A stretch of 64,000 nucleotides of DNA from positions 32,001 through 96,000 of the IMG/VR virus record IMGVR_UViG_646311924_000007. One strand, given 5' to 3'. The translations under genes and the position numbers were made by a program. Source of the DNA: a virus. Its lineage: Duplodnaviria > Heunggongvirae > Uroviricota > Caudoviricetes. The notes beneath the pieces are model-generated. The model ran no database searches. It was given only the letters and a program-made list of their open reading frames with translations, and was not told the DNA's origin. Positions 8,297 through 64,000 of this stretch are shown here, one piece after another. Every line of letters begins with the position of its first letter. The stretch's first letter is position 1.

Positions 8297-8402
8297 TATA
8301 ACCTCACCTGCCTTATAACCCATTTAGGGTACATATTTTCGCCTTTAAAAAAAAGAGGTTATTAGATCCAATTGTGTATTTATTAAGCATATAATGCTCT
8401 AA

Positions 8403-8419
8403 TAAATTTGTATTTTTAA
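8403..8419 (+). promoter_or_regulatory. C1 repressor operator-like site (AATGCTCTAATAAATTT)
   Basis: 16/17 match to recalled P1 C1 operator consensus ATTGCTCTAATAAATTT; in divergent intergenic region. Confidence 0.6.
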
Positions 8420-8945: not shown

Positions 8946-9979
8946 AAAAACCTCTCGTCACCCGTAATGACATAGCCGAAGCTATCGCCCTGCATACTGC
9001 CTGTATGCCGACACGGGAGATCCCCGGCGCAATTGCCAACTATTTCATGATAACCAGACGTTTTTATACCCGAACAGATAAGGCTGTGATCAACAAGCTA
9101 CTGATAGCCGAGATCAGGGATTATTTGATTGAACAAGGACGTCTACGTTACGCAACAGTGGCAGCAGAAATGAGAAAGGAGGCACATAGAATGACCGGTA
9201 ATAATTTGAATGTTGAAAAAACAGCACCTGTTACGTCAGCTACGCCAGCACCAGCCGTGAATATCATCCCCAACACCGGAGACACAATCGACAGCCTGAC
9301 ACTGTTAAAGATGGTCAATGAAGCGCGTAAGTTATGTGGGGAACCAGAGGTTCGGAACAACAAATTCATAGAAAAAATACTCGATGAGCTTGATGGTGAG
9401 CACTACACAAAAAGTGTAGTGGAAAAAATGAACAAAACATCAATGCTTGTCATAACCATGACCTACAAACAAGCCCTGCGAGTCGCCGCACGCGAATCAA
9501 AAGCCGTCCGCCGTTCGCTGATCGACAAACTGGAAGAATTGCAGCAGGCAAACTCCCCTACCCCATCGATCCCCCAAACATTACCAGAAGCTCTACGCCT
9601 GGCTGCCGAGTTGGCAGAACAGAAAATGCAGTTGGAACAACAGCTGGTGGCCGCAGCCCCTAAAGTCGATTTTGCCGACCGGGTATCAGCGGCTAATGGA
9701 ATCCTGATCGGGAACTTTGCAAAGGTCGTTGGACTTAAGCAAAACGCCCTTTTCTCATGGTTGCGCCAGAACGGCATTCTCATGGCTTTTGGTGCGCGCA
9801 AAAACGTACCGCGCCAACAGTACATCAACGCCGGATATTTCACGGTGAAAGAAGTGGTGCTGGATGATGAAGATGGCTACCAGATACGGCTGACGCCCCA
9901 ATTAACGGGTAAAGGCCAGCAGTGGTTAACTCGCAAGCTACTTGATGCTGGTTTGTTAAAACCAGTAGCAATAGGTTAA
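8942..9979 (+). CDS. antirepressor-like protein with KilA C-terminal (KilAC/ANT) domain
   Basis: C-terminus LPEALRLAAELAEQK..APKVDFADRV..GKGQQWL is near-identical in motif to the KilA C-terminus at 10144; translationally coupled to icd-like gene. Confidence 0.65.
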   Translation: MKKPLVTRNDIAEAIALHTACMPTREIPGAIANYFMITRRFYTRTDKAVINKLLIAEIRDYLIEQGRLRYATVAAEMRKEAHRMTGNNLNVEKTAPVTSATPAPAVNIIPNTGDTIDSLTLLKMVNEARKLCGEPEVRNNKFIEKILDELDGEHYTKSVVEKMNKTSMLVITMTYKQALRVAARESKAVRRSLIDKLEELQQANSPTPSIPQTLPEALRLAAELAEQKMQLEQQLVAAAPKVDFADRVSAANGILIGNFAKVVGLKQNALFSWLRQNGILMAFGARKNVPRQQYINAGYFTVKEVVLDDEDGYQIRLTPQLTGKGQQWLTRKLLDAGLLKPVAIG

Positions 9980-10057: not shown

Positions 10058-10074
10058 TTTGCTCTAATAAATTT
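10058..10074 (+). promoter_or_regulatory. C1 operator-like site upstream of kilA-repL (Op53 position)
   Basis: TTTGCTCTAATAAATTT, 16/17 to consensus, ~70 bp upstream of kilA start. Confidence 0.65.
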
Positions 10075-10973: not shown

Positions 10974-11819
10974 ATGCTGGCTAAAGTCACTTTCCTGAGC
11001 TGTATAACGATGAGCGATTTTACTTTTTCTGGCTATGAATTGGCCTGCTTTGTAACACACTCCGGTCTATCCCGTAGCGCCGGGCATATCCTGTCGCAAT
11101 GTGCAAATCTCGCGGCAACAACCAGTGAATACTTCATTCACAAGCCTCACCGCCTGATCGCGGCAGAAACTGGTTATAGCCAATCAACCGTCGTTCGTGC
11201 ATTCCGTGAAGCTGTAAACAAAGGAATCCTGTCAGTAGAGATTGTTATCGGCGATCACCGTGAACGTCGCGCTAACCTGTACCGGTTTACACCATCCTTT
11301 TTGGCCTTCGCACAACAAGCAAAAAATGCGCTGATTGAAAGCAAATTAAAGATCTCTTCAGCGGCAACCAAGGTTAAAGCTGTTCTCGCTAAGACATTGG
11401 CTTTATTTAATTTTTTATCCACACCCCCATGTCAAAATGATACCCCCTCCCCCTGTCAGGATGACGTGGCAATAAAGAATAAGAAGTCACAATTTAAAAA
11501 AACAAAAAGATCAGTTTCCGGCGCTGCCGGAACGACCAAACTCAAAAAATTGACTTCATGGATCGCTGAGGCAAAAGCAAAGGCTGACAATCTGCGGTTA
11601 TCCAAAAAACGCGCTCAAAAACATGAGTTCAAGCAGAAAGTAGAGGCGGCAGCGCGGAAATATGCTTACCTGAAGAACAAGCGTTCTCCTGATATTGGCG
11701 GGGTATCAAACTTCGATAATCTGCCGCATTGCATGACGGTAAACGAAGCTCTTAATGCGGTTTTAGCCAAAAATAAAGATAACGAACAATGGGGTATACC
11801 GGCAGGATTCAGAGGGTGA
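10974..11819 (+). CDS. repL: lytic replication protein RepL
   Basis: 281 aa, same length and position as P1 RepL downstream of kilA. No sequence comparison run. Confidence 0.65.
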   Translation: MLAKVTFLSCITMSDFTFSGYELACFVTHSGLSRSAGHILSQCANLAATTSEYFIHKPHRLIAAETGYSQSTVVRAFREAVNKGILSVEIVIGDHRERRANLYRFTPSFLAFAQQAKNALIESKLKISSAATKVKAVLAKTLALFNFLSTPPCQNDTPSPCQDDVAIKNKKSQFKKTKRSVSGAAGTTKLKKLTSWIAEAKAKADNLRLSKKRAQKHEFKQKVEAAARKYAYLKNKRSPDIGGVSNFDNLPHCMTVNEALNAVLAKNKDNEQWGIPAGFRG

Positions 11820-12115
11820 TAGATTGCTCTAATCTGGAGTCACCTGGCGTTTTCAGTTTGAGGTCGGAGATGCAATCTGATTTTTTACAGTTAGCGATCG
11901 CTTTTGCAGGATATGTTTGTATTGGCTTCTGTGTATACATGATCAGCCGAAAAATGCTTGTCGATATCGACCGCAAAGAACAAGCAGAGGAGATCTTAGT
12001 ATGGATTTTCTTTGGCGCGGTCTGGCCATTAGGGATCATGTTTGCTGCAACATTTCTTCTGATGTGGATATTCACCCTTCCAGGTGATTTCTATAGAAAA
12101 AAAGCCAGACATTGA
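11789..12115 (+). CDS. small membrane protein (hypothetical)
   Basis: Hydrophobic segments (LAIAFAGYVCIGFCVYMI, ILVWIFFGAVWPLGIMFAATFLLMWIF); true start may be an internal Met. Confidence 0.35.
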   Translation: MGYTGRIQRVIDCSNLESPGVFSLRSEMQSDFLQLAIAFAGYVCIGFCVYMISRKMLVDIDRKEQAEEILVWIFFGAVWPLGIMFAATFLLMWIFTLPGDFYRKKARH

Positions 12116-12296
12116 TACAATCGTTGCGGGTGCTTGAGGCTATCTGCTTCAGGCATTACCCGAAAAGCAGATAGAAGAAAGCCCCAGATAACATTACGCG
12201 TCCTGCAAGACGCTTAACATTAATCTGAGGCCACATCTATGCTTAGCATACGTAGATTAGCCTCTTACCGACCAAAAGGTCAAGGAGAAGCAGGCT

Positions 12297-12452
12297 ATGA
12301 AGCAGCAAAAAGCGATGTTAATCGCTCTGATCGTCATCTGTTTAACCGTCATTGTGACGGCACTGGTAACGAGGAAAGACCTCTGCGAGGTACGAATCCG
12401 AACCGGCCAGACGGAGGTCACTGTCTTCACAGCCTACGAATCTGAAAGGTAA
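12297..12452 (+). CDS. hok: Hok/Gef-family membrane toxin
   Basis: 51 aa MKQQKAMLIALIVICLTVIVTALVTRKDLCEVRIRTGQTEVTVFTAYESER, close to Hok/SrnB/PndA; overlapping mok-like frame 12239..12445; GC-rich fold-back at 12459-12480. Confidence 0.8.
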   Translation: MKQQKAMLIALIVICLTVIVTALVTRKDLCEVRIRTGQTEVTVFTAYESER

Positions 12453-25010: not shown

Positions 25011-25027
25011 ATTGCTCTAATAAATAT
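25011..25027 (+). promoter_or_regulatory. C1 operator-like site (ATTGCTCTAATAAATAT)
   Basis: 16/17 to consensus, in divergent intergenic region between PAAR-like gene and uhr/hrdC/dmt operon. Confidence 0.65.
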
Positions 25028-25383: not shown

Positions 25384-26281
25384 GCACTGGAAAAACATTA
25401 CTATTTATAAACTTTCTCGTGAGGCGGATCTGACCGACTTAGAAGATAAAAAGAAAATGATCCTTTTCACGCCATGCGGTAGTCAGGATATGGCCAAGTT
25501 CGGTTTTGTATCGCCATTTGGTGATAATTCTGAAGTTATCGCTATGCATGGAAATGGTTTTATCCTTGTTGAAGCAAAGCGCGAAACAAAAATTCTTCCC
25601 CCGCCGGTTATCCAGCGAGCTATTCAAGAAAAAATTGAAAAACTTGAGCAAGAACAAGCGCGTAAACTGAAGAAAACAGAGAAGGACTCCCTGAAAGACG
25701 AAGTTCTGCATTCTCTTCTGCCACGGGCTTTTTCAAAGTTTTCTGTTATCCAGGCGATCTACGACGGTTCAACTAAACGTATCTATATCAATGCCAGCGC
25801 GCGGCAGGCAGAGGATATGCTCGCGCTTATGCGTAAGTCTCTGGGTTCTCTTCCTGCTGTTCCCCTGAGTGTTGAAAATCCCATTGAATTAACGCTGACC
25901 GACTGGGTACGTGATGGTAGTGCTCCACAGGGATTTCAAATGGGGGATGCGGCAGAACTTAAGGCAGTGCTTGAGGATGGCGGTATTGCCCGAGTGAAAA
26001 AGCAGGATTTGGGAAGCGATGAAATTTCCACACACCTGGAAGCTGGCAAGCTCGTCACTAAGTTGGCACTCGACTGGCAGAACCGCATTAAATTTACACT
26101 GGACCATAACTTCAGCCTTACCAGCGTCAAATTTGCGGATGAATTGCTTGAGCAGAACTCTGATATTGATAGTGAAGATGTTGCGCAGCGACTGGACGCA
26201 GATTTCTTCCTGTTGACCAGTGAAATTTCGTGCCTGGTTGATGCTCTGGTAAATGCCCTTGGCGGAGAGGCTAAGCAGTGA
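25376..26281 (+). CDS. hrdC: RdgC-like recombination-associated protein
   Basis: 302 aa from ATG 25376; long identity runs to E. coli RdgC as recalled ([45 protein letters not shown]). Confidence 0.85.
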
Positions 26282-29200
26282 AAGAGCTGTGCTATGGATC
26301 TGTTTGCAGTGGAATTGAAGCCGCGAGTATTGCCTGGGAACCGTTGGGTATGCGTCCGGCGTGGTTTGCTGAAATCGAGCCTTTTCCATCGGCCGTTCTT
26401 GCGCTCCGCTGGCCCCATGTTGCCAACCTTGGCGACATGAAAAAACTTGCCAAAAAAGTCTTGGCTGGGGAAATCGAATCCCCTGACGTGCTCGTCGGGG
26501 GAACACCATGTTTTACCGCGGGGCATATGGTTCTTTGTAAAAATGGCTATAAACCAATAGAAAATGTTTGCCCTGGTGATTACGTAGTCAGTCATCTCGG
26601 GCGGTTACAACAAGTAAAAAGAGTTGGTTCAAAAATAGCTAATACGGGGTTACTTAATGCCGTTGGGCAGCCTTTAGGTATAAGAACAACCAATGACCAT
26701 CCCTTCCTGGCTGTTCGGTGGAAAGCCCAAAACACCCGGAAAAATGGCACATATTTTAAGAGAGAGTTGTTGTCTGAACCGGAATGGCGAGCAGCATGTG
26801 ATATGCCGGGATATCAATGGTGCGCTCTAACTAATTTCAATATTGCATTTCCAGATATTTGTTCTCGGTTCTTGTCTGAAGAACAGGCTATGTATCTTGC
26901 GGGCGCTTATGTTGGCGATGGATATATTAGGAGATGGAGAGGTAAATCTAAGAAGGCGGTTGTTTTTGGCATAAATTGCCAGAAATTGAGAAAGTTTCAT
27001 TGCCGCATACCAGAAAACATATTTTCCGTGGCAAGCGAAATCCGAGGGAGCATCAAAGTAACCTTGAATGATACGTGTTATGCCAATTGGCTTAATGAAC
27101 ATTTTGGCGAGTTAAGCCATGCTAAGCGTATCCCTGCATGGGTGATGTCGCATCCATTGCGTCATGTGTTTTTACAAGGCTATCTTGATACTGATGGGAC
27201 ACCAAGTGGTAAAGCGGGATTTAGAATTAATAGTGTTAGTTCTGCGCTTGCTTGGGGCGTTGCGGGGTTGTCACAGACTTGTGGTTATGTTTCTTCGGTC
27301 AGCTTTATTGAAGTTGAGCCCAAAAAAGTGATCGAGGATCGCGTGGTAAATCAACGGAATTATTATCAGGTAACAATCTGCCCGCAGAAATTGTCACGTA
27401 AATCAAGATTGGCTCATGGAATGCTTTTACGAACAGTCAAAGAGTTTAAATCGGTAGGCCTAGATACTGTATACAACATAGAAGTCGAAGGTGATCATTC
27501 CTATATCCTCAATGGTGCGGTGGTCCATAACTGTCAGGCATTCAGTATCGCGGGATTACGTGGTGGGCTTGATGATGAGCGTGGCGCGCTAACTTTAAAG
27601 TATGTGGAGCTTGCAAATGCAATTGACGACAAACGGGCTGAGTCATTTCTCAAACCAGCCGTTATCGTCTGGGAAAATGTCCCAGGAGTCTTGTCATCGG
27701 CAGATAACGCCTTCGGATGTTTCCTTGCCGGATTGGCTGGAGAAGATGTGCCATTTGAACCAGGTGATCGACCTGAATCAGGAAAAAGCAACGCGTTCTG
27801 GCGGTGGGATGGCAAAACCGGTTGCCATGTTCCAAAGTGGCCGCAGTGTGGTTGTATTTATGGACCGCAGCGAAAAGTGGCCTGGAGAATCCTTGATGCC
27901 CAATACTTCGGAGTGGCACAACGACGCCGACGCGTGTTTGTTGTCGCAAGTGCTCGAACAGATCTCGATCCCGCAACGGTACTTTTTGAGTTCGAAGGCG
28001 TGCGCCGGAATATTGCGCCGAGCAGAGGCGAGGGGAAGGAAACTACCAGATATACTTCAAACATCGCTATCAGAACTTGCGATGATACAAACATAATTGC
28101 CATGGCACATGGGCAAGGAGGGGCTGAGATAAAAACCGATAATTCGGCACCAACTTTGACATGTAACCATGAAGCACCAATTGTATTGCTCGGCGACGGT
28201 AGAATGCGCCGTCTTACCCCTGTCGAATGTGAAAGGCTGCAAGGTTTTCCTGATTGGCATACGTTGATCCCTACGGAAAAGCGTAAAAAAGTTAATTCAG
28301 ATGAACTGGCATATCTGCACAATCACTATCCAGATTTAAGCGAAGAAGAGGCCGCAATGCTTGCAGCTGACGGACCGCGTTACAAAGCGATCGGCAATAG
28401 TATGGCAATACCAGTAATGCGCTGGATTGGCGATCGGATTACTAAGGCCGTATGTCGGCAGAAAGAAGGAAGTGAAACAAAAGAGCGAAAAGTTAAACCA
28501 GCGGCAGAATTCGAACGGTCCATATTCAAATGGGCTGGTGGAAAATTTGGTGTTCTGGAACAAATCTTTCGCTATTTGCCAGAAGGGAAGCGCCTGATTG
28601 AACCTTTCGTTGGTGGCGGAGCTGTCTTCATGAATGCCGGATACCAGGAAAATCTGCTAAATGATGTGAATGCTGACCTGATTAACTTTTACAAGACTCT
28701 GCAACGCGAGGCGCATTCACTTATCACTCTGGCACATCGTTTCTTCCAGGACTACAACACACAGGAAGGATACCTGGCAGTACGGAATGCGTTTAACAAA
28801 CAAGTCTATGATGATTTACATCGCGCAGCGGCGTTTTTGTTCCTGAACCGACATTGTTTTAACGGATTGACGCGTTACAACCAGGCCGGTGAGTTCAATG
28901 TCGGTTATGGGAAGTATAAAACTCCGTATTTCCCATTACAGGAGATGGAAGCCTTCCTCGGTGCGGAAGGGCGGTCTGAGTTTGTATGCGGTGATTTTGC
29001 AGCGGTGATTGAAGCTGCCGGAGAAGGAGATGTCATCTTTTGCGATCCGCCGTATGAACCGCTTCCAAATACAGAGGGATTCACGAACTATTCCGGTCAT
29101 GACTTTAAGTTTGAAGAGCAAAAACGCCTGGTGTCTCTGTTGACGGATGCTCATCGTCGAGGTGCAAAGGTTCTCATTACTAACAGTGGCGCGCCAAACA

Positions 29201-29319
29201 TCAGAGAGCTTTATCATGACAGTGGCTTCAGAGTGGAACCTCTTTTTGCCAGACGTTCTGTGTCTTGTAAGGGGGACACTCGAGGTGTAGCTCATGACGT
29301 TTTGGGTATATTGCTCTAA
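26278..29319 (+). CDS. dmt: bifunctional DNA methyltransferase Dmt (C5-cytosine MTase plus Dam-like N6-adenine MTase) carrying an intein
   Basis: GTG start overlapping hrdC stop; C5 motifs IV ([12 protein letters not shown], split), VI (ENV), IX ([16 protein letters not shown]), X (GNSMAIPV); Dam-like FKWAGGK and DPPY in C-terminal half. Confidence 0.85.
26509..27531 (+). mobile_element. intein with LAGLIDADG homing-endonuclease domain (341 aa) inside dmt
   Basis: Starts Cys (CFTAGHMVL), block B TTNDHPF, two LAGLIDADG motifs ([22 protein letters not shown]), ends [16 protein letters not shown] then +1 Cys; removal rejoins GGTP and CQAFSIAG. Confidence 0.8.
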
Positions 29320-29326
29320 TAAATTT
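29310..29326 (+). promoter_or_regulatory. C1 operator, perfect consensus ATTGCTCTAATAAATTT
   Basis: 17/17 match; overlaps last codons and TAA stop of dmt, upstream of tRNA/plp/ban region. Confidence 0.7.
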
Positions 29327-29500
29327 ATTAGTGTAATATCACCTCAATGAATCGTGATTTATAGAGCGATTTAGCTGTTAGCCGCGACAGGCGCGGCGGT
29401 AAGCATGGCTGGGCCTAGTCCTCCCAGACAAACCACCGAGTTGCCAGGTTGACCATGCGCCTAAGTGGCAACGCCGAAGTGCGTTACGAGCGTCCAGTTT

Positions 29501-29527
29501 GCCCATCTTCGGGTGGGCGTTTTTTTC
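29501..29527 (+). terminator. rho-independent terminator
   Basis: Hairpin GCCCATC-TTCG-GGTGGGC followed by TTTTTTT. Confidence 0.55.
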
Positions 29528-29991
29528 AGGGTTTTCGTCATGGTTAGCGACTTTGCGGCGGTTTAGAAACTGACCATTAAAGTAAATGCAAACGATGATC
29601 TGATGATGGTAGCGGCCTAAGAAGCCAGATGCCATGGGGTATGAGTCGTCCCCCGTCAAAAAATCGACCGCAGAGTGTCCCCGTCTGTGTATTAGGGAAC
29701 GGGGAGGCACAACAGGTAAGGGCGCTGGTGTGATTAACCAGATGAACGAGAAGGGGCCATCTGTTGGTCAGCGTCCTTTCCTGTTGCGTTTTCTTTTCAG
29801 CGTAACAGCGGTGCTTAACAGCACTTTGGGTACAGTTCCACGAATTTACGGGTATATCCCGTCATGCTGAAGGCGCTAATCACGCTGGAAGCCAGGGTTA
29901 TGCATCCCCTGTTACCGAATTGCAGCCAGGGCGCGGTGCGCCGAAAAGCATACGGAGGTGGAAGCCCTCGCCGGAGACGTACCCGGCAAGT

Positions 29992-43279: not shown

Positions 43280-44166
43280 TGCCACTGCTGGATAAGCTGC
43301 GTGAGCAGTACGGGGTCGGACCGGTATGCAGCGAACTGCATATTGCCCCGTCAACGTATTACCATTGTCAGCAACAGCGACATCATCCGGATAAACGCAG
43401 TGCCCGTGCGCAGCACGACGACTGGCTGAAGAGAGAGATACAGCGCGTATACGATGAAAATCATCAGGTGTACGGTGTGCGTAAAGTCTGGCGTCAGTTG
43501 TTACGGGAAGGAATCAGGGTGGCCAGATGTACAGTGGCACGTCTCATGGCGGTTATGGGACTTGCCGGTGTTCTCCGGGGTAAAAAGGTCCGTACGACCA
43601 TCAGCCGGAAAGCCGTTGCCGCAGGCGACCGCGTAAACCGTCAGTTCGTGGCAGAACGACCTGACCAGCTGTGGGTGGCTGATTTTACTTACGTCAGCAC
43701 ATGGCAGGGCTTCGTCTATGTGGCGTTTATCATTGATGTGTTTGCCGGATACATCGTGGGGTGGCGGGTCTCATCGTCTATGGAAACGACATTCGTGCTG
43801 GATGCGCTGGAGCAGGCGTTGTGGGCCCGTCGTCCGTCTGGCACCATCCATCACAGCGATAAAGGCTCTCAGTATGTGTCACTGGCCTATACGGAGCGAC
43901 TAAAAGAAGCCGGATTACTGGCATCAACAGGGAGTACAGGCGACTCGTATGACAACGCGATGGCTGAGAGCATCAATGGTCTTTACAAAGCGGAGGTAAT
44001 ACACCGTAAGAGCTGGAAAAACCGTGCAGAAGTGGAACTGGCCACACTAACGTGGGTGGACTGGTATAACAATCGACGATTGCTGGGAAGGCTGGGCCAT
44101 ACTCCTCCGGCAGAAGCAGAAAAAGCTTATTATGCTTCCATCGGAAACGATGATCTGGCAGCCTGA
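43276..44166 (+). CDS. IS3-family transposase OrfB (DDE)
   Basis: 296 aa with DDE core; overlaps orfA in -1 frame at GGAAAAAATG. Confidence 0.85.
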
Positions 44167-44709
44167 GTTCACAGATAAAACACTCTCCAGGAAACCCGGG
44201 GCGGTTCAGACCGGATATAACCGATGATCTGTTCTATCTGGATTTGGACACGGTTATTGCCGGTGATATACGCCCAATCCTTGAGAATCCACCAACCTGC
44301 TTCACCATGCTTAGGGATTTTTACCATCCACAATATCGTGGTAGCGGTGCCCTGTGGATACCAAATAGTGTAAAAGCACATATCTGGAGTTCATTCTGGC
44401 AAGATCCGGAAGGTTGGATTGCTCGTTGTGTCACTACTGAGTGCTGGGGTGATCAGGGGTTCTTACGGAAGGTTATGGGCGATGATACACCAGCATTTCA
44501 GGATCTGTATCCAGGATGGTTTGTAAGTTACAAGGCCGATGTTGTGGAACCTGGTTCAAAATATGCGAGCGCGCGTTACTCCAGGGGGAATGGGGCATTA
44601 CCAAAGGACTGCCGAATAATCTTTTTCCACGGCAAACCGCGGCCTCGCGAAGTGTCAGAGGATTGGCTTCCCCTCATTAGCTCGTTTTTTGAGCGAGAAT
44701 CAGAATAAT

Positions 44710-44726
44710 ATTGCTCTAATAATTCC
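44710..44726 (+). promoter_or_regulatory. C1 operator-like site (ATTGCTCTAATAATTCC)
   Basis: 13/17 to consensus with perfect first 13 positions; abuts stop of upstream gene. Confidence 0.5.
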
Positions 44727-44734
44727 ATATTTTT

Positions 44735-44764
44735 AAAACGTGATGTACACTCATCACGTTTTTT
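44735..44764. terminator. palindromic hairpin with flanking A/T runs (bidirectional terminator)
   Basis: AAAACGTGATG-TACACTC-ATCACGTTTTTT; stem 44738-44745/44752-44759. Confidence 0.5.
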
Positions 44765-44775
44765 ATTAGAGCAAT
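44759..44775 (-). promoter_or_regulatory. C1 operator-like site in inverted orientation
   Basis: Reverse complement reads ATTGCTCTAATAAAAAA (14/17); forms an inverted operator pair with 44710 around the hairpin. Confidence 0.45.
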
Positions 44776-46345: not shown

Positions 46346-46852
46346 TTGAGTATTTTCAATAAACACGCACACCAGGAACGTCCGTATATCGTCATAGTCG
46401 ATATTGATGGGACGATATCAGAGGCAACGGAAGACAGGCTGCATTTGCTTCCACCACCTGGCAAAGGTGCATTAACAGAGCACTGGAACGAGTTTAACCT
46501 TGCCTGTGACACTGATGCTCCCATCACTCCAGTTATTGATATGGTGCGCCAGTTATTTAACGTTTACACGGTCTGGTTTGTAACCGGGCGCTGTGAGATA
46601 GCCAGGGATAAAACACGAGCCTGGTTGCGTAAGCACGTAACAAACGGGGCTGAGCCTTTGCTATCTATGCGTCCTGCCACCGATGACAGAAATGACGGCC
46701 CAGCAAAGATTGCTCTCCTTAAGAAAATTGGTCTAAGTAAAATCGCGTTCGCGCTGGAAGATAAGATTGAAGTGGCGCGTGTTTTCAGGAGTCACGGCGT
46801 ACTTACGTTAATGGTCAGGGAGTATGAAAACGCGCTTCTCCATCAACAGTAA
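46346..46852 (+). CDS. HAD-superfamily phosphatase-like protein
   Basis: Motif I VIVDIDGTIS near N-terminus; 168 aa. Confidence 0.5.
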   Translation: MSIFNKHAHQERPYIVIVDIDGTISEATEDRLHLLPPPGKGALTEHWNEFNLACDTDAPITPVIDMVRQLFNVYTVWFVTGRCEIARDKTRAWLRKHVTNGAEPLLSMRPATDDRNDGPAKIALLKKIGLSKIAFALEDKIEVARVFRSHGVLTLMVREYENALLHQQ

Positions 46853-46868
46853 TTGCTCTAATAAATCT
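46852..46868 (+). promoter_or_regulatory. C1 operator-like site (ATTGCTCTAATAAATCT)
   Basis: 16/17 to consensus; abuts stop of HAD-like gene, upstream of early-gene block. Confidence 0.6.
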
Positions 46869-56959: not shown

Positions 56960-58003
56960 GTGAAAGCCGTAATTACTCCCTTTGTACAGAAAGAGCTTGG
57001 CCTCGCCACGTTCAAAGTGGATCAGGAGGTCAGAAAGCTGGTGGAGGCTGGCCGTAAATTTATTATGGAGCCGGTGCCGCGTGAGTTAATCGAGCACATG
57101 GAAGACGGCCTCGTTGTTACCGAGCAAACCATGGCAACAAATGAGGCGTTGCAGCCGTTTTTTAACAGCGATGAACTGTTTCGCCGTATTGGTGGAATTG
57201 ACGCGCTGGTGGCGTGGTTGCGCAGGAAAGAGGGGCAATGCCAGGCCGCAGATCGTAGCTGGTGTGACAACCATATTGTCCACGCAGAACGAGACAATAG
57301 CGCGGTGTTGTTGTGCTGGCATCACGATAACCATTACCGGATGCGTGGTTTTAATGAGCTGAAAGAAACGCTGCATAATAATCGCGTTAACTGGATACTG
57401 GATGTCGCCCGTCAGGAAATGGGGCTTTCAGATGGCCATGATTTAAGTATTCAGGAACTGTGCTGGTGGGCTTTCATGCGCAACATGATGCACCTGATGC
57501 CGGAAGAAGTTTGCCGTATATCAATAAATAAGATGAAAGCCGCAACGCAGGATAGCGGACCTCTGAAAGAGGCGGATATTCGCCCGTATGACGATCGCGC
57601 TACAGCATATGTTCAGATGATGGAAGAACGCGCCGCGCCGATGCGTGCAAAAGTATGCCCTGTGGATGTTGACTCCGACCCAGGTATGGCGCATTTCAAG
57701 ATACCAAAACTTCAATCGCTAAAATTACCTGAGTACATGGACTTTGTTGCTTCCCGTCCATGCTGTGGGTGTGGAGCGGCGGGAGCTGGCGCTCACATTA
57801 CGCCTTATATCGTTCGTCATAGTCGATTATGCGCGCATGACATTTACGCAATTCCTCTGTGCCAGTCATGCCAGCGTGATATTGAGCGTGACCGCGATAA
57901 TTGGGAGAAGACGCACGGTAGGCTGGCGATGCATCAACGATTGTTCTTTGATTACGCGCTTGGAGTCGGCGCTATCACAAGTCACTCGTCGAGCGTTAGA
58001 TAA
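56960..58003 (+). CDS. Cys-rich protein downstream of doc (pdcB position)
   Basis: 347 aa with [12 protein letters not shown] and CQSCQRD clusters. Confidence 0.45.
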
Positions 58004-58004
58004 A

Positions 58005-58021
58005 ATTGCTCTAATGTATTG
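58005..58021 (+). promoter_or_regulatory. weak C1 operator-like site (ATTGCTCTAATGTATTG)
   Basis: First 11 positions match consensus, 3 mismatches in 3' half; upstream of lpa. Confidence 0.35.
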
Positions 58022-58091
58022 CTATTTCTTTAATAGAGGGTATTATATTCCACGTTGATTAGTTGACATGGGCTAATCAGTAGGTGACAGG

Positions 58092-59823: not shown

Positions 59824-61307
59824 TGGCCAGAAGTTGCGTAACGGACCCACGTTGGCGCGAGCTGGTGGCGCTATATCGTTATGACTGGATTGCGGCCGCT
59901 GATGTGTTGTTTGGGAAGACACCAACCTGGCAGCAGGATGAGATCATTGAGTCCACGCAGCAGGACGGCAGTTGGACAAGTGTGACCTCCGGCCATGGTA
60001 CTGGTAAGTCGGATATGACGAGTATCATTGCAATACTCTTCATCATGTTTTTCCCCGGCGCTCGCGTTATTCTGGTCGCTAACAAAAGACAGCAAGTCCT
60101 TGATGGTATTTTCAAATACATAAAGAGCAATTGGGCTACTGCTGTTAGCAGATTCCCGTGGTTGTCGAAGTATTTCATTCTTACAGAAACGTCTTTTTTT
60201 GAGGTGACTGGCAAGGGTGTTTGGACAATATTGATAAAGTCCTGTCGCTCCGGAAATGAGGAGGCGTTGGCTGGTGAACACGCCGATCATCTCTTGTATA
60301 TCATCGACGAAGCGTCGGGTGTGAGTGATAAAGCATTCAGTGTGATAACAGGTGCGCTGACCGGTAAGGATAACCGTATTCTGCTTCTTTCCCAGCCTAC
60401 GCGACCTTCAGGCTATTTCTACGATTCACACCACAGACTAGCTATTCGCCCGGGAAATCCTGATGGATTGTTTACTGCGATAATACTGAATAGTGAAGAA
60501 TCTCCGCTTGTAGATGCAAAATTTATACGAGCAAAACTTGCGGAGTATGGCGGTCGTGATAACCCCATGTACATGATCAAAGTACGTGGTGAATTTCCCA
60601 AATCTCAAGATGGCTTTCTTCTTGGTCGTGATGAGGTTGAGCGGGCGACGCGGCGAAAGGTCAAGATTGCCAAAGGATGGGGCTGGGTTGCATGTGTTGA
60701 CGTTGCTGGTGGCACAGGACGAGATAAGTCCGTTATTAATATCATGATGGTGTCCGGCCAGCGAAATAAACGCCGTGTAATCAACTATCGTATGCTGGAA
60801 TACACAGACGTTACAGAAACGCAGTTAGCCGCCAAGATTTTCGCAGAATGTAACCCAGAACGGTTCCCGAACATAACCATAGCTATTGATGGCGATGGCT
60901 TGGGGAAATCGACGGCTGATCTGATGTACGAACGCTATGGTATTACCGTCCAGCGTATCCGCTGGGGTAAAAAGATGCACAGCCGTGAAGATAAAAGCCT
61001 TTATTTCGATATGCGCGCTTTCGCGAATATTCAGGCGGCAGAAGCTGTAAAATCAGGGCGTATGCGGCTTGATAAGGGGGCTGCGACTATAGAGGAAGCA
61101 TCAAAGATACCGGTAGGGATAAATTCCGCAGGTCAATGGAAGGTGATGTCAAAGGAAGATATGAAGAAAAAACTCAACCTGCACTCACCGGACCATTGGG
61201 ATACATATTGTTTCGCTATGTTGGCGAACTATGTTCCCCAAGATGAAGTGCTTAGCGTCGAAGACGAAGCGCAGGTTGATGAAGCTCTGGCATGGCTTAA
61301 TGAATGA
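59823..61307 (+). CDS. pacB: terminase large subunit PacB
   Basis: 494 aa; Walker A-like region and C-terminal nuclease segment ([11 protein letters not shown]). Confidence 0.85.
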
Positions 61308-61310
61308 ATA

Positions 61311-61327
61311 TTTGCTCTAATAAATTG
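61311..61327 (+). promoter_or_regulatory. C1 operator-like site (TTTGCTCTAATAAATTG)
   Basis: 15/17 to consensus, 4 nt after pacB stop. Confidence 0.55.
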
Positions 61328-61645
61328 TGTTTTTTAACTACCGATGTTACATTGAGCCTGACCTCTTGCGCCTTGAGGCATTTTCGGTTTATGCTTATCA
61401 GGCACCTCATTAAAACGGGTGCCGGGATTGGCCTCCCGCTTAAGTCTAAGGCGATACAGACGCCGCTCGCGTCTTTTTTTGTATCGGCGTACACGCACAC
61501 CTCTACAATGGTGGGCTGTATGGGGCTACCTTCGGGTAGGCTGGTTACCTTGGACGCCAGTAAGGCCAACTCCGTACAGTCCACCGCCAGCAAGATTGGT
61601 CTCTTCTGCGGTGGTTACATACCAACGTCTAAGGAGGCTGCCAAT

Positions 61646-61867
61646 ATGGCTACTATCCCTACCCCAACTCATCCTGAATTTATCTGGCGCTTTTACTCCT
61701 GCCAAAAACGTCACTATCACTTCGTTATTGCACCAACAGAAGATGAGGCTCGCTCTCAGCTTCCTGACGCCCCATGTATTTTCTCTGCCCGTTTTTCCAC
61801 TGATTCACGCAATTCTCTCAGTTACTGGTGCCTCCCTGTTAACGCTTCTGCTCAGGAGGGACTATGA
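61646..61867 (+). CDS. Icd-like small protein, paralog 2
   Basis: 73 aa MATIPTPTHPEFIWRFYSCQKRHYHFVIAPTEDEARSQLPDAPCIF; stop 61865-61867 sits 3 bp before the IS end. Confidence 0.65.
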   Translation: MATIPTPTHPEFIWRFYSCQKRHYHFVIAPTEDEARSQLPDAPCIFSARFSTDSRNSLSYWCLPVNASAQEGL

Positions 61868-61912
61868 GAATGAACCGCCCCGGGTTTCCTGGAGAGTGTT
61901 TTATCTGTGAAC

Positions 61913-62803
61913 TCAGGCTGCCAGATCATCGTTTCCGATGGAAGCATAATAAGCTTTTTCTGCTTCTGCCGGAGGAGTATGGCCCAGCCTTCCCAGCAAT
62001 CGTCGATTGTTATACCAGTCCACCCACGTTAGTGTGGCCAGTTCCACTTCTGCACGGTTTTTCCAGCTCTTACGGTGTATTACCTCCGCTTTGTAAAGAC
62101 CATTGATGCTCTCAGCCATCGCGTTGTCATACGAGTCGCCTGTACTCCCTGTTGATGCCAGTAATCCGGCTTCTTTTAGTCGCTCCGTATAGGCCAGTGA
62201 CACATACTGAGAGCCTTTATCGCTGTGATGGATGGTGCCAGACGGACGACGGGCCCACAACGCCTGCTCCAGCGCATCCAGCACGAATGTCGTTTCCATA
62301 GACGATGAGACCCGCCACCCCACGATGTATCCGGCAAACACATCAATGATAAACGCCACATAGACGAAGCCCTGCCATGTGCTGACGTAAGTAAAATCAG
62401 CCACCCACAGCTGGTCAGGTCGTTCTGCCACGAACTGACGGTTTACGCGGTCGCCTGCGGCAACGGCTTTCCGGCTGATGGTCGTACGGACCTTTTTACC
62501 CCGGAGAACACCGGCAAGTCCCATAACCGCCATGAGACGTGCCACTGTACATCTGGCCACCCTGATTCCTTCCCGTAACAACTGACGCCAGACTTTACGC
62601 ACACCGTACACCTGATGATTTTCATCGTATACGCGCTGTATCTCTCTCTTCAGCCAGTCGTCGTGCTGCGCACGGGCACTGCGTTTATCCGGATGATGTC
62701 GCTGTTGCTGACAATGGTAATACGTTGACGGGGCAATATGCAGTTCGCTGCATACCGGTCCGACCCCGTACTGCTCACGCAGCTTATCCAGCAGTGGCAT
62801 CAT
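61913..62803 (-). CDS. IS3-family transposase OrfB (copy 2)
   Basis: Translation identical to copy 1 OrfB. Confidence 0.85.
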
Positions 62804-63126
62804 TTTTTCCAGAGGCGGTCGAACTCCGCCTTCGCAAAATAAGCGGAAGCCTGGCGAAGGATATCGTTACTGCGGCGCAGTTCACGATTTTCACGTTCCA
62901 GCTCTTTCAGACGCTGACGTTCAGCGCTGGTGAGCCCACCATCACCGCCCCCGGTATCCCGCTCATGCTGGCGAACCCAGACACGCAGAGTCTCCGGCGT
63001 ACAGCCAATCTTTGGGGCAATGGAACAAATTGCCGCCCACTGTGAGTCATATTCATCCTGACTTTCCAGAACCATACGAATCGCCCGCTGACGGACTTCG
63101 GGGGAAAAACGAGTATTTTTAGTCAT
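62800..63126 (-). CDS. IS3-family transposase OrfA (copy 2)
   Basis: Translation identical to copy 1 OrfA. Confidence 0.85.
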
Positions 63127-63206
63127 CCTGTTTACCTCTTTCTCAGGGAGTTTAGTCTCCAGGATTTCCGGGGCGGTTCAGAACGTCATTAGTCACCCGT
63201 GAAGAG

Positions 63207-64000
63207 ATGATCGAGGCAATTGAACAGCACACAATCTGTATCAGCACCAGGGATATACCTGGCGTTATTGCCAACTACTTCATGATCACCAAACAACTTT
63301 ACCGGAGAAAGGACAAGAACGCGGTTCACCGTATCCTGTTGTCTGATATCCGCGAATACCTGCTCGAACAGGGTCATCTGAATTACGCAACCGTCGCAGC
63401 CGAAGCACGCAAGGAGGCACACAGAATGAAAGCAAATAACGTTAAATTAGAAAAAATTCATGCACCTTCAGTTCAGGAATCGGAGCTGGTGGTTGTTCAG
63501 AATCAGTCTGATGAAATTCCCGTTCTGGAATGGCAGGGAGTGCGTGTAGTGACAACCGAGACTCTTGCGAGAGGGTATGGGACAGAAACAATCCGTATTC
63601 GCCAAAATCATCATGAGAACAAAGTACGCTTTGTTGAAGGGAAGCACTTTTTCAAAGTTGAAGGAGAATCATTGCGCGAGTTGAAGCACAGAGTAGCTTT
63701 AAACTACTCTGTAAAAATTGCTCGCAATGTTCGCTCACTCACCCTCTGGACAGAACGCGGCGCAGCCCGCCACGCTAAAATGCTCGAAACCGATCAGGCA
63801 TGGGCATTCTTTGAAAAACTGGAAGACAGCTACTTCCGACAAAAAGAACAGCAACCGATCGCAATCCCCCAGACGCTTCCTGAAGTCCTACGCCTGGCTG
63901 CCGAACTGGCTGAACAAAAGCAACTTCTGGAACAGAAAGCCCACCAGCTAAATCAGCAGCTGGTGGCCGCCGCTCCTAAAGTCGATTTTGCCGACCGGGT
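63207..64000 (+). CDS. antirepressor-like protein with KilAC domain, paralog of 8942..9979; runs off window end
   Basis: ATG 63207; N-terminal CISTRDIPGVIANYFMITKQLY parallels CMPTREIPGAIANYFMITRRFY; C-terminal LPEVLRLAAELAEQK...APKVDFADR matches KilAC. Confidence 0.6.
   Translation, partial: MIEAIEQHTICISTRDIPGVIANYFMITKQLYRRKDKNAVHRILLSDIREYLLEQGHLNYATVAAEARKEAHRMKANNVKLEKIHAPSVQESELVVVQNQSDEIPVLEWQGVRVVTTETLARGYGTETIRIRQNHHENKVRFVEGKHFFKVEGESLRELKHRVALNYSVKIARNVRSLTLWTERGAARHAKMLETDQAWAFFEKLEDSYFRQKEQQPIAIPQTLPEVLRLAAELAEQKQLLEQKAHQLNQQLVAAAPKVDFADR

Follow-up and report, generated by a model that had tools for sequence, protein, structure and literature searches.

The stretch of DNA analysed here (64 kb, hereafter the window) belongs to a Punavirus-type, i.e. 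P1-like, phage-plasmid and is colinear with positions 39498-93204 of P1 (12 blocks in a local BLAST comparison with AF234172), spanning the genes from the tail region to pacB with several insertions and replacements relative to P1. P1-type phages, namely vB_EcoM-Ro157c2YLVW, RCS47 and P1, match a 5-kb query around position 29310 at 96-99.5% identity. At this position lies the end of dmt (26278-29319, plus strand), a 1013-aa open reading frame for a C5 and N6-adenine DNA methyltransferase (Pfam DNA_methylase and MethyltransfD12), together with two C1 operator motifs and the predicted promoter of the ban operon.

The dmt-ban junction

The focal feature, Op72a (Obana; 29310-29326, plus strand), has no mismatch to ATTGCTCTAATAAATTT, the asymmetric C1 operator consensus quoted in PMC8546580, where 22 operators are given. 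The sequence-only reading of this DNA, which had used the same 17-mer and had placed a perfect operator over the last dmt codons and TAA, was hence correct on both counts: the dmt stop (29317-29319) represents operator positions 8-10, and the codons ATA TTG CTC (I-L-L) in front of it occupy operator bases 1-7. In the alignment with P1, 29310-29326 falls on 68667-68683, which is annotated as 'monovalent C1-controlled operator Obana / Op72a'. The inverted partner Op72b (Obanb; ATTACACTAATAAATTT, 29321-29337, minus strand) carries two mismatches and is identical to P1 68678-68694. Both sites overlap by 6 bp (AAATTT) in inverted orientation with an offset of 11 bp, the arrangement by which a divalent C1 operator of the Op72ab/Op99ab type is recognised. 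As such, this P1-type phage-plasmid carries Op72ab (Obanab), a divalent C1 operator, at 29310-29337, with its function assigned by homology.

The operator pair shares its bases with a predicted promoter (29311-29339, plus strand), which consists of the -35 hexamer TTGCTC (29311-29316), a 17-bp spacer and the -10 hexamer TAATAT (29334-29339) and agrees in both hexamers and in the distance between them with P1ban, an annotated sigma-70 promoter of P1. According to the P1 annotation, the -35 element of P1ban corresponds to operator positions 2-7 and its -10 element to positions 25-30 of Op72ab, and the same bases are found in the window. A generic sigma-70 consensus scan of 29100-29600 called no promoter, this one included, because TTGCTC agrees with TTGACA at only 3 of 6 positions, and its assignment consequently rests on homology. 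It follows directly from these coordinates that the C-terminus of Dmt, the -35 hexamer and the predicted repressor site share a single stretch of DNA.

In a P1 lysogen, each asymmetric 17-bp site is bound by one C1 repressor with the help of the co-repressor Lxc. By homology with P1, C1 on both inverted sites would occlude P1ban, which lies inside the 28-bp operator pair, and would thereby keep the ban operon, from the dicF-like RNA and the tRNAs on to ban, silent in the lysogen. Upon inactivation of C1, RNA polymerase would be expected to start at P1ban.

The counterpart in P1 is Op72ab of AF234172 (68667-68694) with the promoters P1ban and P2ban at the dmt-ban junction. Its 28-bp sequence is identical in the window, so that the operator itself shows no difference, and P1 dmt ends at 68676 inside Obana, i.e. 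at the operator position at which the dmt stop of the window is found. The dicF-like region and the tRNAs downstream of Op72ab are likewise common to both, whereas the ban operon region of the window contains extra genes, among them one for a serine protease. The ban promoter is followed, after about 170 nt, by a terminator-like hairpin with a T-run (29497-29519), which coincides with the end of the region homologous to the P1 'dicF-like region'. In this region, an Rfam search did not report DicF at the gathering threshold.

The c1 gene lies outside the window, which ends in an ant remnant. In RCS47 and NZ_CP027590, c1 comes straight after an extra C4/icd/antirepressor module, and a plasmid with 100% identity to the window at the dmt/Oban junction encodes a C1 protein with 99% identity to P1 C1.

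With respect to the coding side of the overlap, the Dmt C-terminus (...HDVLGILL) is identical to that of P1 Dmt. The 1013-aa protein extends beyond its D12 methyltransferase domain, the last residue of which is 984 (Pfam), and the Dam homologue of phage D6, which has no operator at the 3' end of its gene, terminates at the same residue as Dmt. Based on these two observations, the operator overlies the native C-terminal tail of Dmt and has not captured a run-on reading frame. The idea that the tail is a run-on frame caught by the first stop codon in the operator was accordingly rejected, since the D6 protein ends at the same residue.

The junction is widespread and well conserved. It was found at ≥90% identity in 468 PLSDB plasmids. 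An exact-pattern scan of IMG/VR for ATTGCTCTAATAAAT returned 120 loci, about two thirds of which are chance matches in unrelated contigs, and only the P1-like contigs were used from it. In these contigs, seven haplotypes (V[LMI][GA][IV]LL*) precede an invariant operator and LL-stop. As a sample obtained in this way is biased towards intact operators, the three most divergent plasmids, picked by BLAST and not by motif, were added; in these, the dmt TAA and the two operators persist with no more than one change each, and the alignment varies most in the six columns in front of the element and the four columns behind it.

Further upstream, dmt of the window differs from P1 dmt in a variant middle segment and in an intein of 341 aa (26509-27531) that is absent from P1 Dmt (754 aa). 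The intein starts with CFTAG, ends with VVHN followed by a +1 Cys, matches Pfam Hint_2 and LAGLIDADG_3, and splits the catalytic PCQ motif of the C5-cytosine methyltransferase domain between GTP and CQAFS. RCS47 and vB_EcoM-Ro157c2YLVW match the DNA of this stretch.

C1 operators across the window

The window was scanned with the 17-mer consensus ATTGCTCTAATAAATTT, allowing up to 3 mismatches, and 100 dinucleotide shuffles served as control. The scan gave 12 matches compared to 0.34 expected, a number that was reached in none of the 100 shuffles. The 'about eight' operator-like 17-mers of the sequence-only reading were therefore an undercount, all the more so because two further P1 operators, Op55 (11823-11839) and Op83 (40680-40696), are present in the window and too degenerate for a 3-mismatch scan; annotated P1 operators differ from the consensus at 0 to 7 positions. 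The view of these motifs as C1 operators that mark operon starts agrees with both the consensus and the homology to annotated P1 operators. Of the 12 matches, 11 were counted as coinciding with operators annotated in P1, and the site-by-site mapping onto AF234172 gives 61311 and 60519 as the sites without an annotated P1 counterpart.

One could argue that the 17-mers arise by chance from AT-rich DNA at gene ends and are no repressor sites. DNA near stop codons is indeed AT-rich, and the match inside pacB (60519-60535, minus strand; TTTGCTCGTATAAATTT, 3 mismatches), which is identical and unannotated in P1, is probably a chance hit, given that 0.34 matches are expected per window. For the set as a whole, such an origin is almost certainly wrong in view of the excess over the shuffled controls, the site-by-site agreement with annotated P1 operators and the appearance of the operator as a conserved island between variable flanks.

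Op51 (Oc4; 8393-8409, plus strand) has no co-directional upstream gene, and Op68 (Odmt; 25011-25027, plus strand) and Op82 (O26; 39773-39789, minus strand) are located in divergent intergenic regions. Op53 (OrepL; 10058-10074, plus strand) is the sole operator behind a co-directional gene that does not adjoin its stop (78 nt in P1), and it covers the -10 and not the -35 element. Op86b (OpmgRb; 44759-44775, minus strand), also placed by mapping to P1, is found 14 nt upstream of the pmgR start.

The remaining P1 counterparts sit directly behind genes. Op86a (OpmgRa; 44710-44726, plus strand; 3 mismatches, identical to P1 82152-82168) begins 1 nt after the TAA (44706-44708) of a pmgQ remnant, and the first A of Op88 (OpmgT; 46852-46868, plus strand; 1 mismatch, placed by mapping to P1) also ends the pap stop TAA (46850-46852), as expected from the claim that both start within two nucleotides of the upstream stops. 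The 'taATTGC' junction of Op88 is kept in 12 P1-like IMG/VR contigs with variable upstream flanks. An adjoining case that the earlier reading had not listed is Op94 (Olpa; 58005-58021, plus strand; 3 mismatches), 1 nt after the pdcB TAA (58001-58003). The -35 hexamer TTGCTA of Plpa (58019-58024) overlaps the 3' end of this operator, and a promoter-like site at 58019-58046 was called by the scan. The candidates for PpmgR, P2pmgT and Plpa in the window are identical in hexamers and spacing to the annotated P1 promoters. Op83 (Oppp; CATGCACTAATTAATTT, minus strand, identical to P1 79435-79451) follows the pmgM TAA (40671-40673) by 6 nt, and the remnant of Op55 (Orlf; ATTGCTCTAATCTGGAG, plus strand) follows the repL TGA (11817-11819) by 3 nt.

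In P1, the stop offsets of Op86a, Op88, Op94, Op55 and Op83 are the same as in the window (+1, -1, +1, +3 and +6 nt), and so are the 17-mers of Op86a, Op88, Op94 and Op83, whereas Op55 is half-replaced in the window, where P1 homology breaks at 11833, the 11th base of the operator. From there to 12527, the window lacks the P1 genes rlfA and rlfB and has in their place a segment with a sok antitoxin RNA (12128-12302), indicative of a hok/sok module. Unlike in P1, an IS629 element (42898-44208) interrupts pmgQ, the gene before Op86a. A second copy in inverted orientation (61871-63181), 100% identical over 1311 bp, interrupts an extra antirepressor gene, and each copy contains an ALIL frameshift pseudoknot.

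Comparison with P1 thus identified the site at 29310 as Op72a, 44710 as Op86a, 46852 as Op88 and 58005 as Op94. The expectation that the noted sites would recur at homologous P1 positions held for 29310, 44710 and 46852 and failed for 61311, where P1 has no operator. The proposal that the TAA inside the operator is reused as a stop codon likewise stood in part, as in the window it is true only of dmt/Op72a: at 44710, 58005 and 61311 the upstream gene has its own stop just before the operator, and at 46852 a single base is shared. A second TAA reuse is found in P1 at ref/Omat (Op2b), outside the window, where the ref TAA (2635-2637) represents positions 8-10 in CATGCACTAATAAATAT.

The site at 61311 (61311-61327, plus strand; TTTGCTCTAATAAATTG, 2 mismatches) begins at the fourth base after the pacB stop, as had been stated, with 3 nt between it and the TGA (61305-61307). 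Both of its variant bases occur in genuine P1 operators. P1 homology stops at 61305 and the site is absent from P1, and the pacB-TGA-ATA-operator junction is identical in RCS47. Over the operator and the next 70 nt or so, the sequence can be aligned with the Op51 cassette, of which it is a paralogue. Behind it come an isrK-like RNA (61402-61479; Rfam), a C4 antisense RNA (61504-61591; Rfam RF01695, 75.9 bits), an icd-like open reading frame (about 61673-61836) with 80% identity to P1 icd, and an antirepressor gene of the KilAC type, which lies within 61311-64000 and is split by IS629. Because it aligns with the Op51 cassette and precedes C4, icd and antirepressor genes, we regard 61311 as the predicted operator of a second immI-type module that resides between pacB and c1 in some P1 relatives. 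This module (61311-64000) is present in RCS47, JL22, vB_EcoM-673R5 and NZ_CP027590 and absent from P1, which has only a 24-nt spacer between pacB and c1. Its order is that of P1 immI (Op51, P51, C4 antisense RNA, icd, ant), except that an isrK-like RNA takes the position of the a1/b1 leader and that the antirepressor is of the KilAC type and, in the window, IS629-disrupted.

Operators next to upstream stop codons

In the P1 annotation, 10 of 20 operators overlap an upstream stop codon or lie no more than 6 nt downstream of it, namely those at ref/Omat, repL/Op55, dmt/Op72a, dmt/Op72b, pmgM/Op83, pmgQ/Op86a, pap/Op88, pdcB/Op94, coi/Oc1a and imcB/Oc1c. For a random 17-mer, the probability of such a position is p=0.03 genome-wide (P=7e-11 for the observed count) and p=0.11 if only non-coding DNA is considered (P=1.8e-5). 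The adjacency of stops and operators is well above chance and hence a real pattern. Within co-directional P1 gaps, 7 of 8 operator cassettes are found within 6 nt of the stop, whereas 7 of 8 late and other promoters keep a distance of 12-159 nt from the stop of the gene before them (Fisher P=0.005, for a small, hand-assembled set).

From our point of view, this adjacency has most likely arisen through compaction of promoter/operator cassettes. The combination of TTGCTC, 17 nt and TAnnnn is found at 7 of the 9 plus-strand operators in the window and is the same as in the annotated promoters P1ban, PpmgR and P2pmgT; by this geometry, a self-contained cassette of about 30 bp begins with the first base of the operator. 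Sequence conservation extends beyond the 17-mer, to about 30 nt from each start, at 8393, 10058, 25011, 29310, 44710, 46852 and 61311, and a T-run follows the operator (e.g. tgatttttaaaac), so that the repeated unit is a promoter/operator cassette of about 30 nt. As most plus-strand operators would contain the -35 element, the first operator base would be the leftmost functional base of the cassette. The equation of the leftmost base with the -35 element is, however, not uniform, as the annotated -35 elements of Op94, Op83 and Oc1a lie outside operator positions 2-7.

Between one operon and the next, P1-type genomes would further keep hardly any idle spacer and lack a terminator; in P1, co-directional genes are separated by a median of 8 nt, with 53 of 88 gaps at ≤15 nt. 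If almost no spacer or terminator is retained, the cassette is expected to sit directly at the stop of the preceding gene, and its edge would end up against this stop or, as at dmt and P1 ref, over it. The essential gene lpa shows no polar effect of CRISPRi roadblocks placed in phd, doc and pdcB (PMC10695390), which fits an autonomous promoter at Op94. Taken together, it is highly probable that 29310-29337 is Op72ab with a C1-repressed ban promoter and that such cassettes adjoin stop codons through compaction. Compaction alone, however, offers no obvious account of the contrast in distance between operators and other promoters within P1.

This contrast can be taken as an argument that the adjacency is functional, with C1 bound right after the stop acting as a roadblock or insulator against read-through in lysogens and replacing terminators, for example against transcription from phd-doc-pdcA-pdcB into lpa or from pacB into the antirepressor module. 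Gaps of 0-3 nt leave no room for a terminator, the scan gave no convincing terminator-like site between doc and Olpa, and pdcB, downstream of the lysogen-expressed phd-doc promoter, adjoins the operator of lpa, a lethal late activator gene. However, most of the operons in front of the junctions (dmt, repL, pmgQ, pap, ref, coi) are under C1 repression as well, which leaves little read-through to block, and a roadblock 20 nt further downstream would serve equally well, so that the flush position would not be explained. Moreover, the accessible literature documents no C1 roadblock activity, and we consider this function quite improbable.

The adjacency could also be a by-product of module exchange, in which the cassettes form the left edges of modules and perhaps serve as short recombination targets. 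Two of the 23 breakpoints of homology between the window and P1 are found at operators, one at 11833 in Op55 and one at 61305, a position 5 nt ahead of the 61311 operator, with which the module that P1 lacks begins; the 61311 cassette is moreover a paralogue of the Op51 cassette, and an unrelated IMG/VR context carries a tandem operator 5 nt after a stop. An enrichment of mosaic breakpoints at operators was considered and not upheld, as 2 of 23 is nominally unlikely genome-wide but, with an estimated expectation of about 0.8, not clearly above chance under a null restricted to intergenic DNA. Most of the adjoining junctions (dmt, pap, pdcB, pmgQ) are, in addition, not breakpoints in the comparisons made. 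Exchange of modules is compatible with deletion-driven compaction and as such no true alternative to it; as an explanation of its own we regard it as very improbable.

In more general terms, it is unlikely that the flush placement represents a selected architecture, be it that the C1 complex serves as an operon boundary or that the cassette of about 30 bp serves as a recombination joint. If it did, a repressor-operator complex as operon boundary would matter most at pdcB/lpa and pacB/antirepressor.

Existing annotation, practical consequences and phage D6

The overlap at dmt is already recorded, since it can be read from AF234172 by comparing the end of dmt (68676) with Obana (68667-68683), and the junctions at Op86a, Op88 and Op94 are likewise readable in the AF234172 feature table. 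'Already known' in this sense rests on the GenBank feature table and not on a published wording of the general pattern: literature searches on the operator names, which did not cover the 2004 P1 genome paper, gave nothing relevant on the pattern. Our additions to the 2004 P1 annotation are modest and consist of the 61311 operator and a figure for the non-randomness of the arrangement.

Several practical points follow for work with these phage-plasmids. The last dmt codons cannot be recoded, tagged or deleted without changing the operator and the -35 element of the ban operon, and clean deletions of pmgQ, pap, pdcB and pacB must end exactly at the stop in order to spare the repressor site of the next operon. 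The operators further allow operon starts to be placed dependably in hundreds of unannotated P1-like plasmids, and 61311 is an operator that the P1 reference cannot supply.

In the wider P1 supercluster, phage D6 offers a comparison. No P1-type operators were found in its genome, which instead contains about 15 intergenic copies of AAATTAGTTTTCTAACA (e.g. 75980-75996, 89948-89964 and 9066-9082), including overlapping inverted pairs at 64116/64129 and 80709/80722. This motif could represent the operator of the divergent C1 of D6. Of 15 such sites, only 3 adjoin a stop at a distance of ≤6 nt (P=0.18), and the tight stop-operator pattern is therefore not general to the wider P1 supercluster; a cut-off of ≤16 nt (P=0.013) was chosen post hoc and no claim of generality is made from it. 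At individual D6 genes, the ref and cre stops overlap the candidate motif, the ref stop (TAG) lying inside a copy of AAATTAGTTTTCTAACA that differs in sequence and orientation from P1 Omat.
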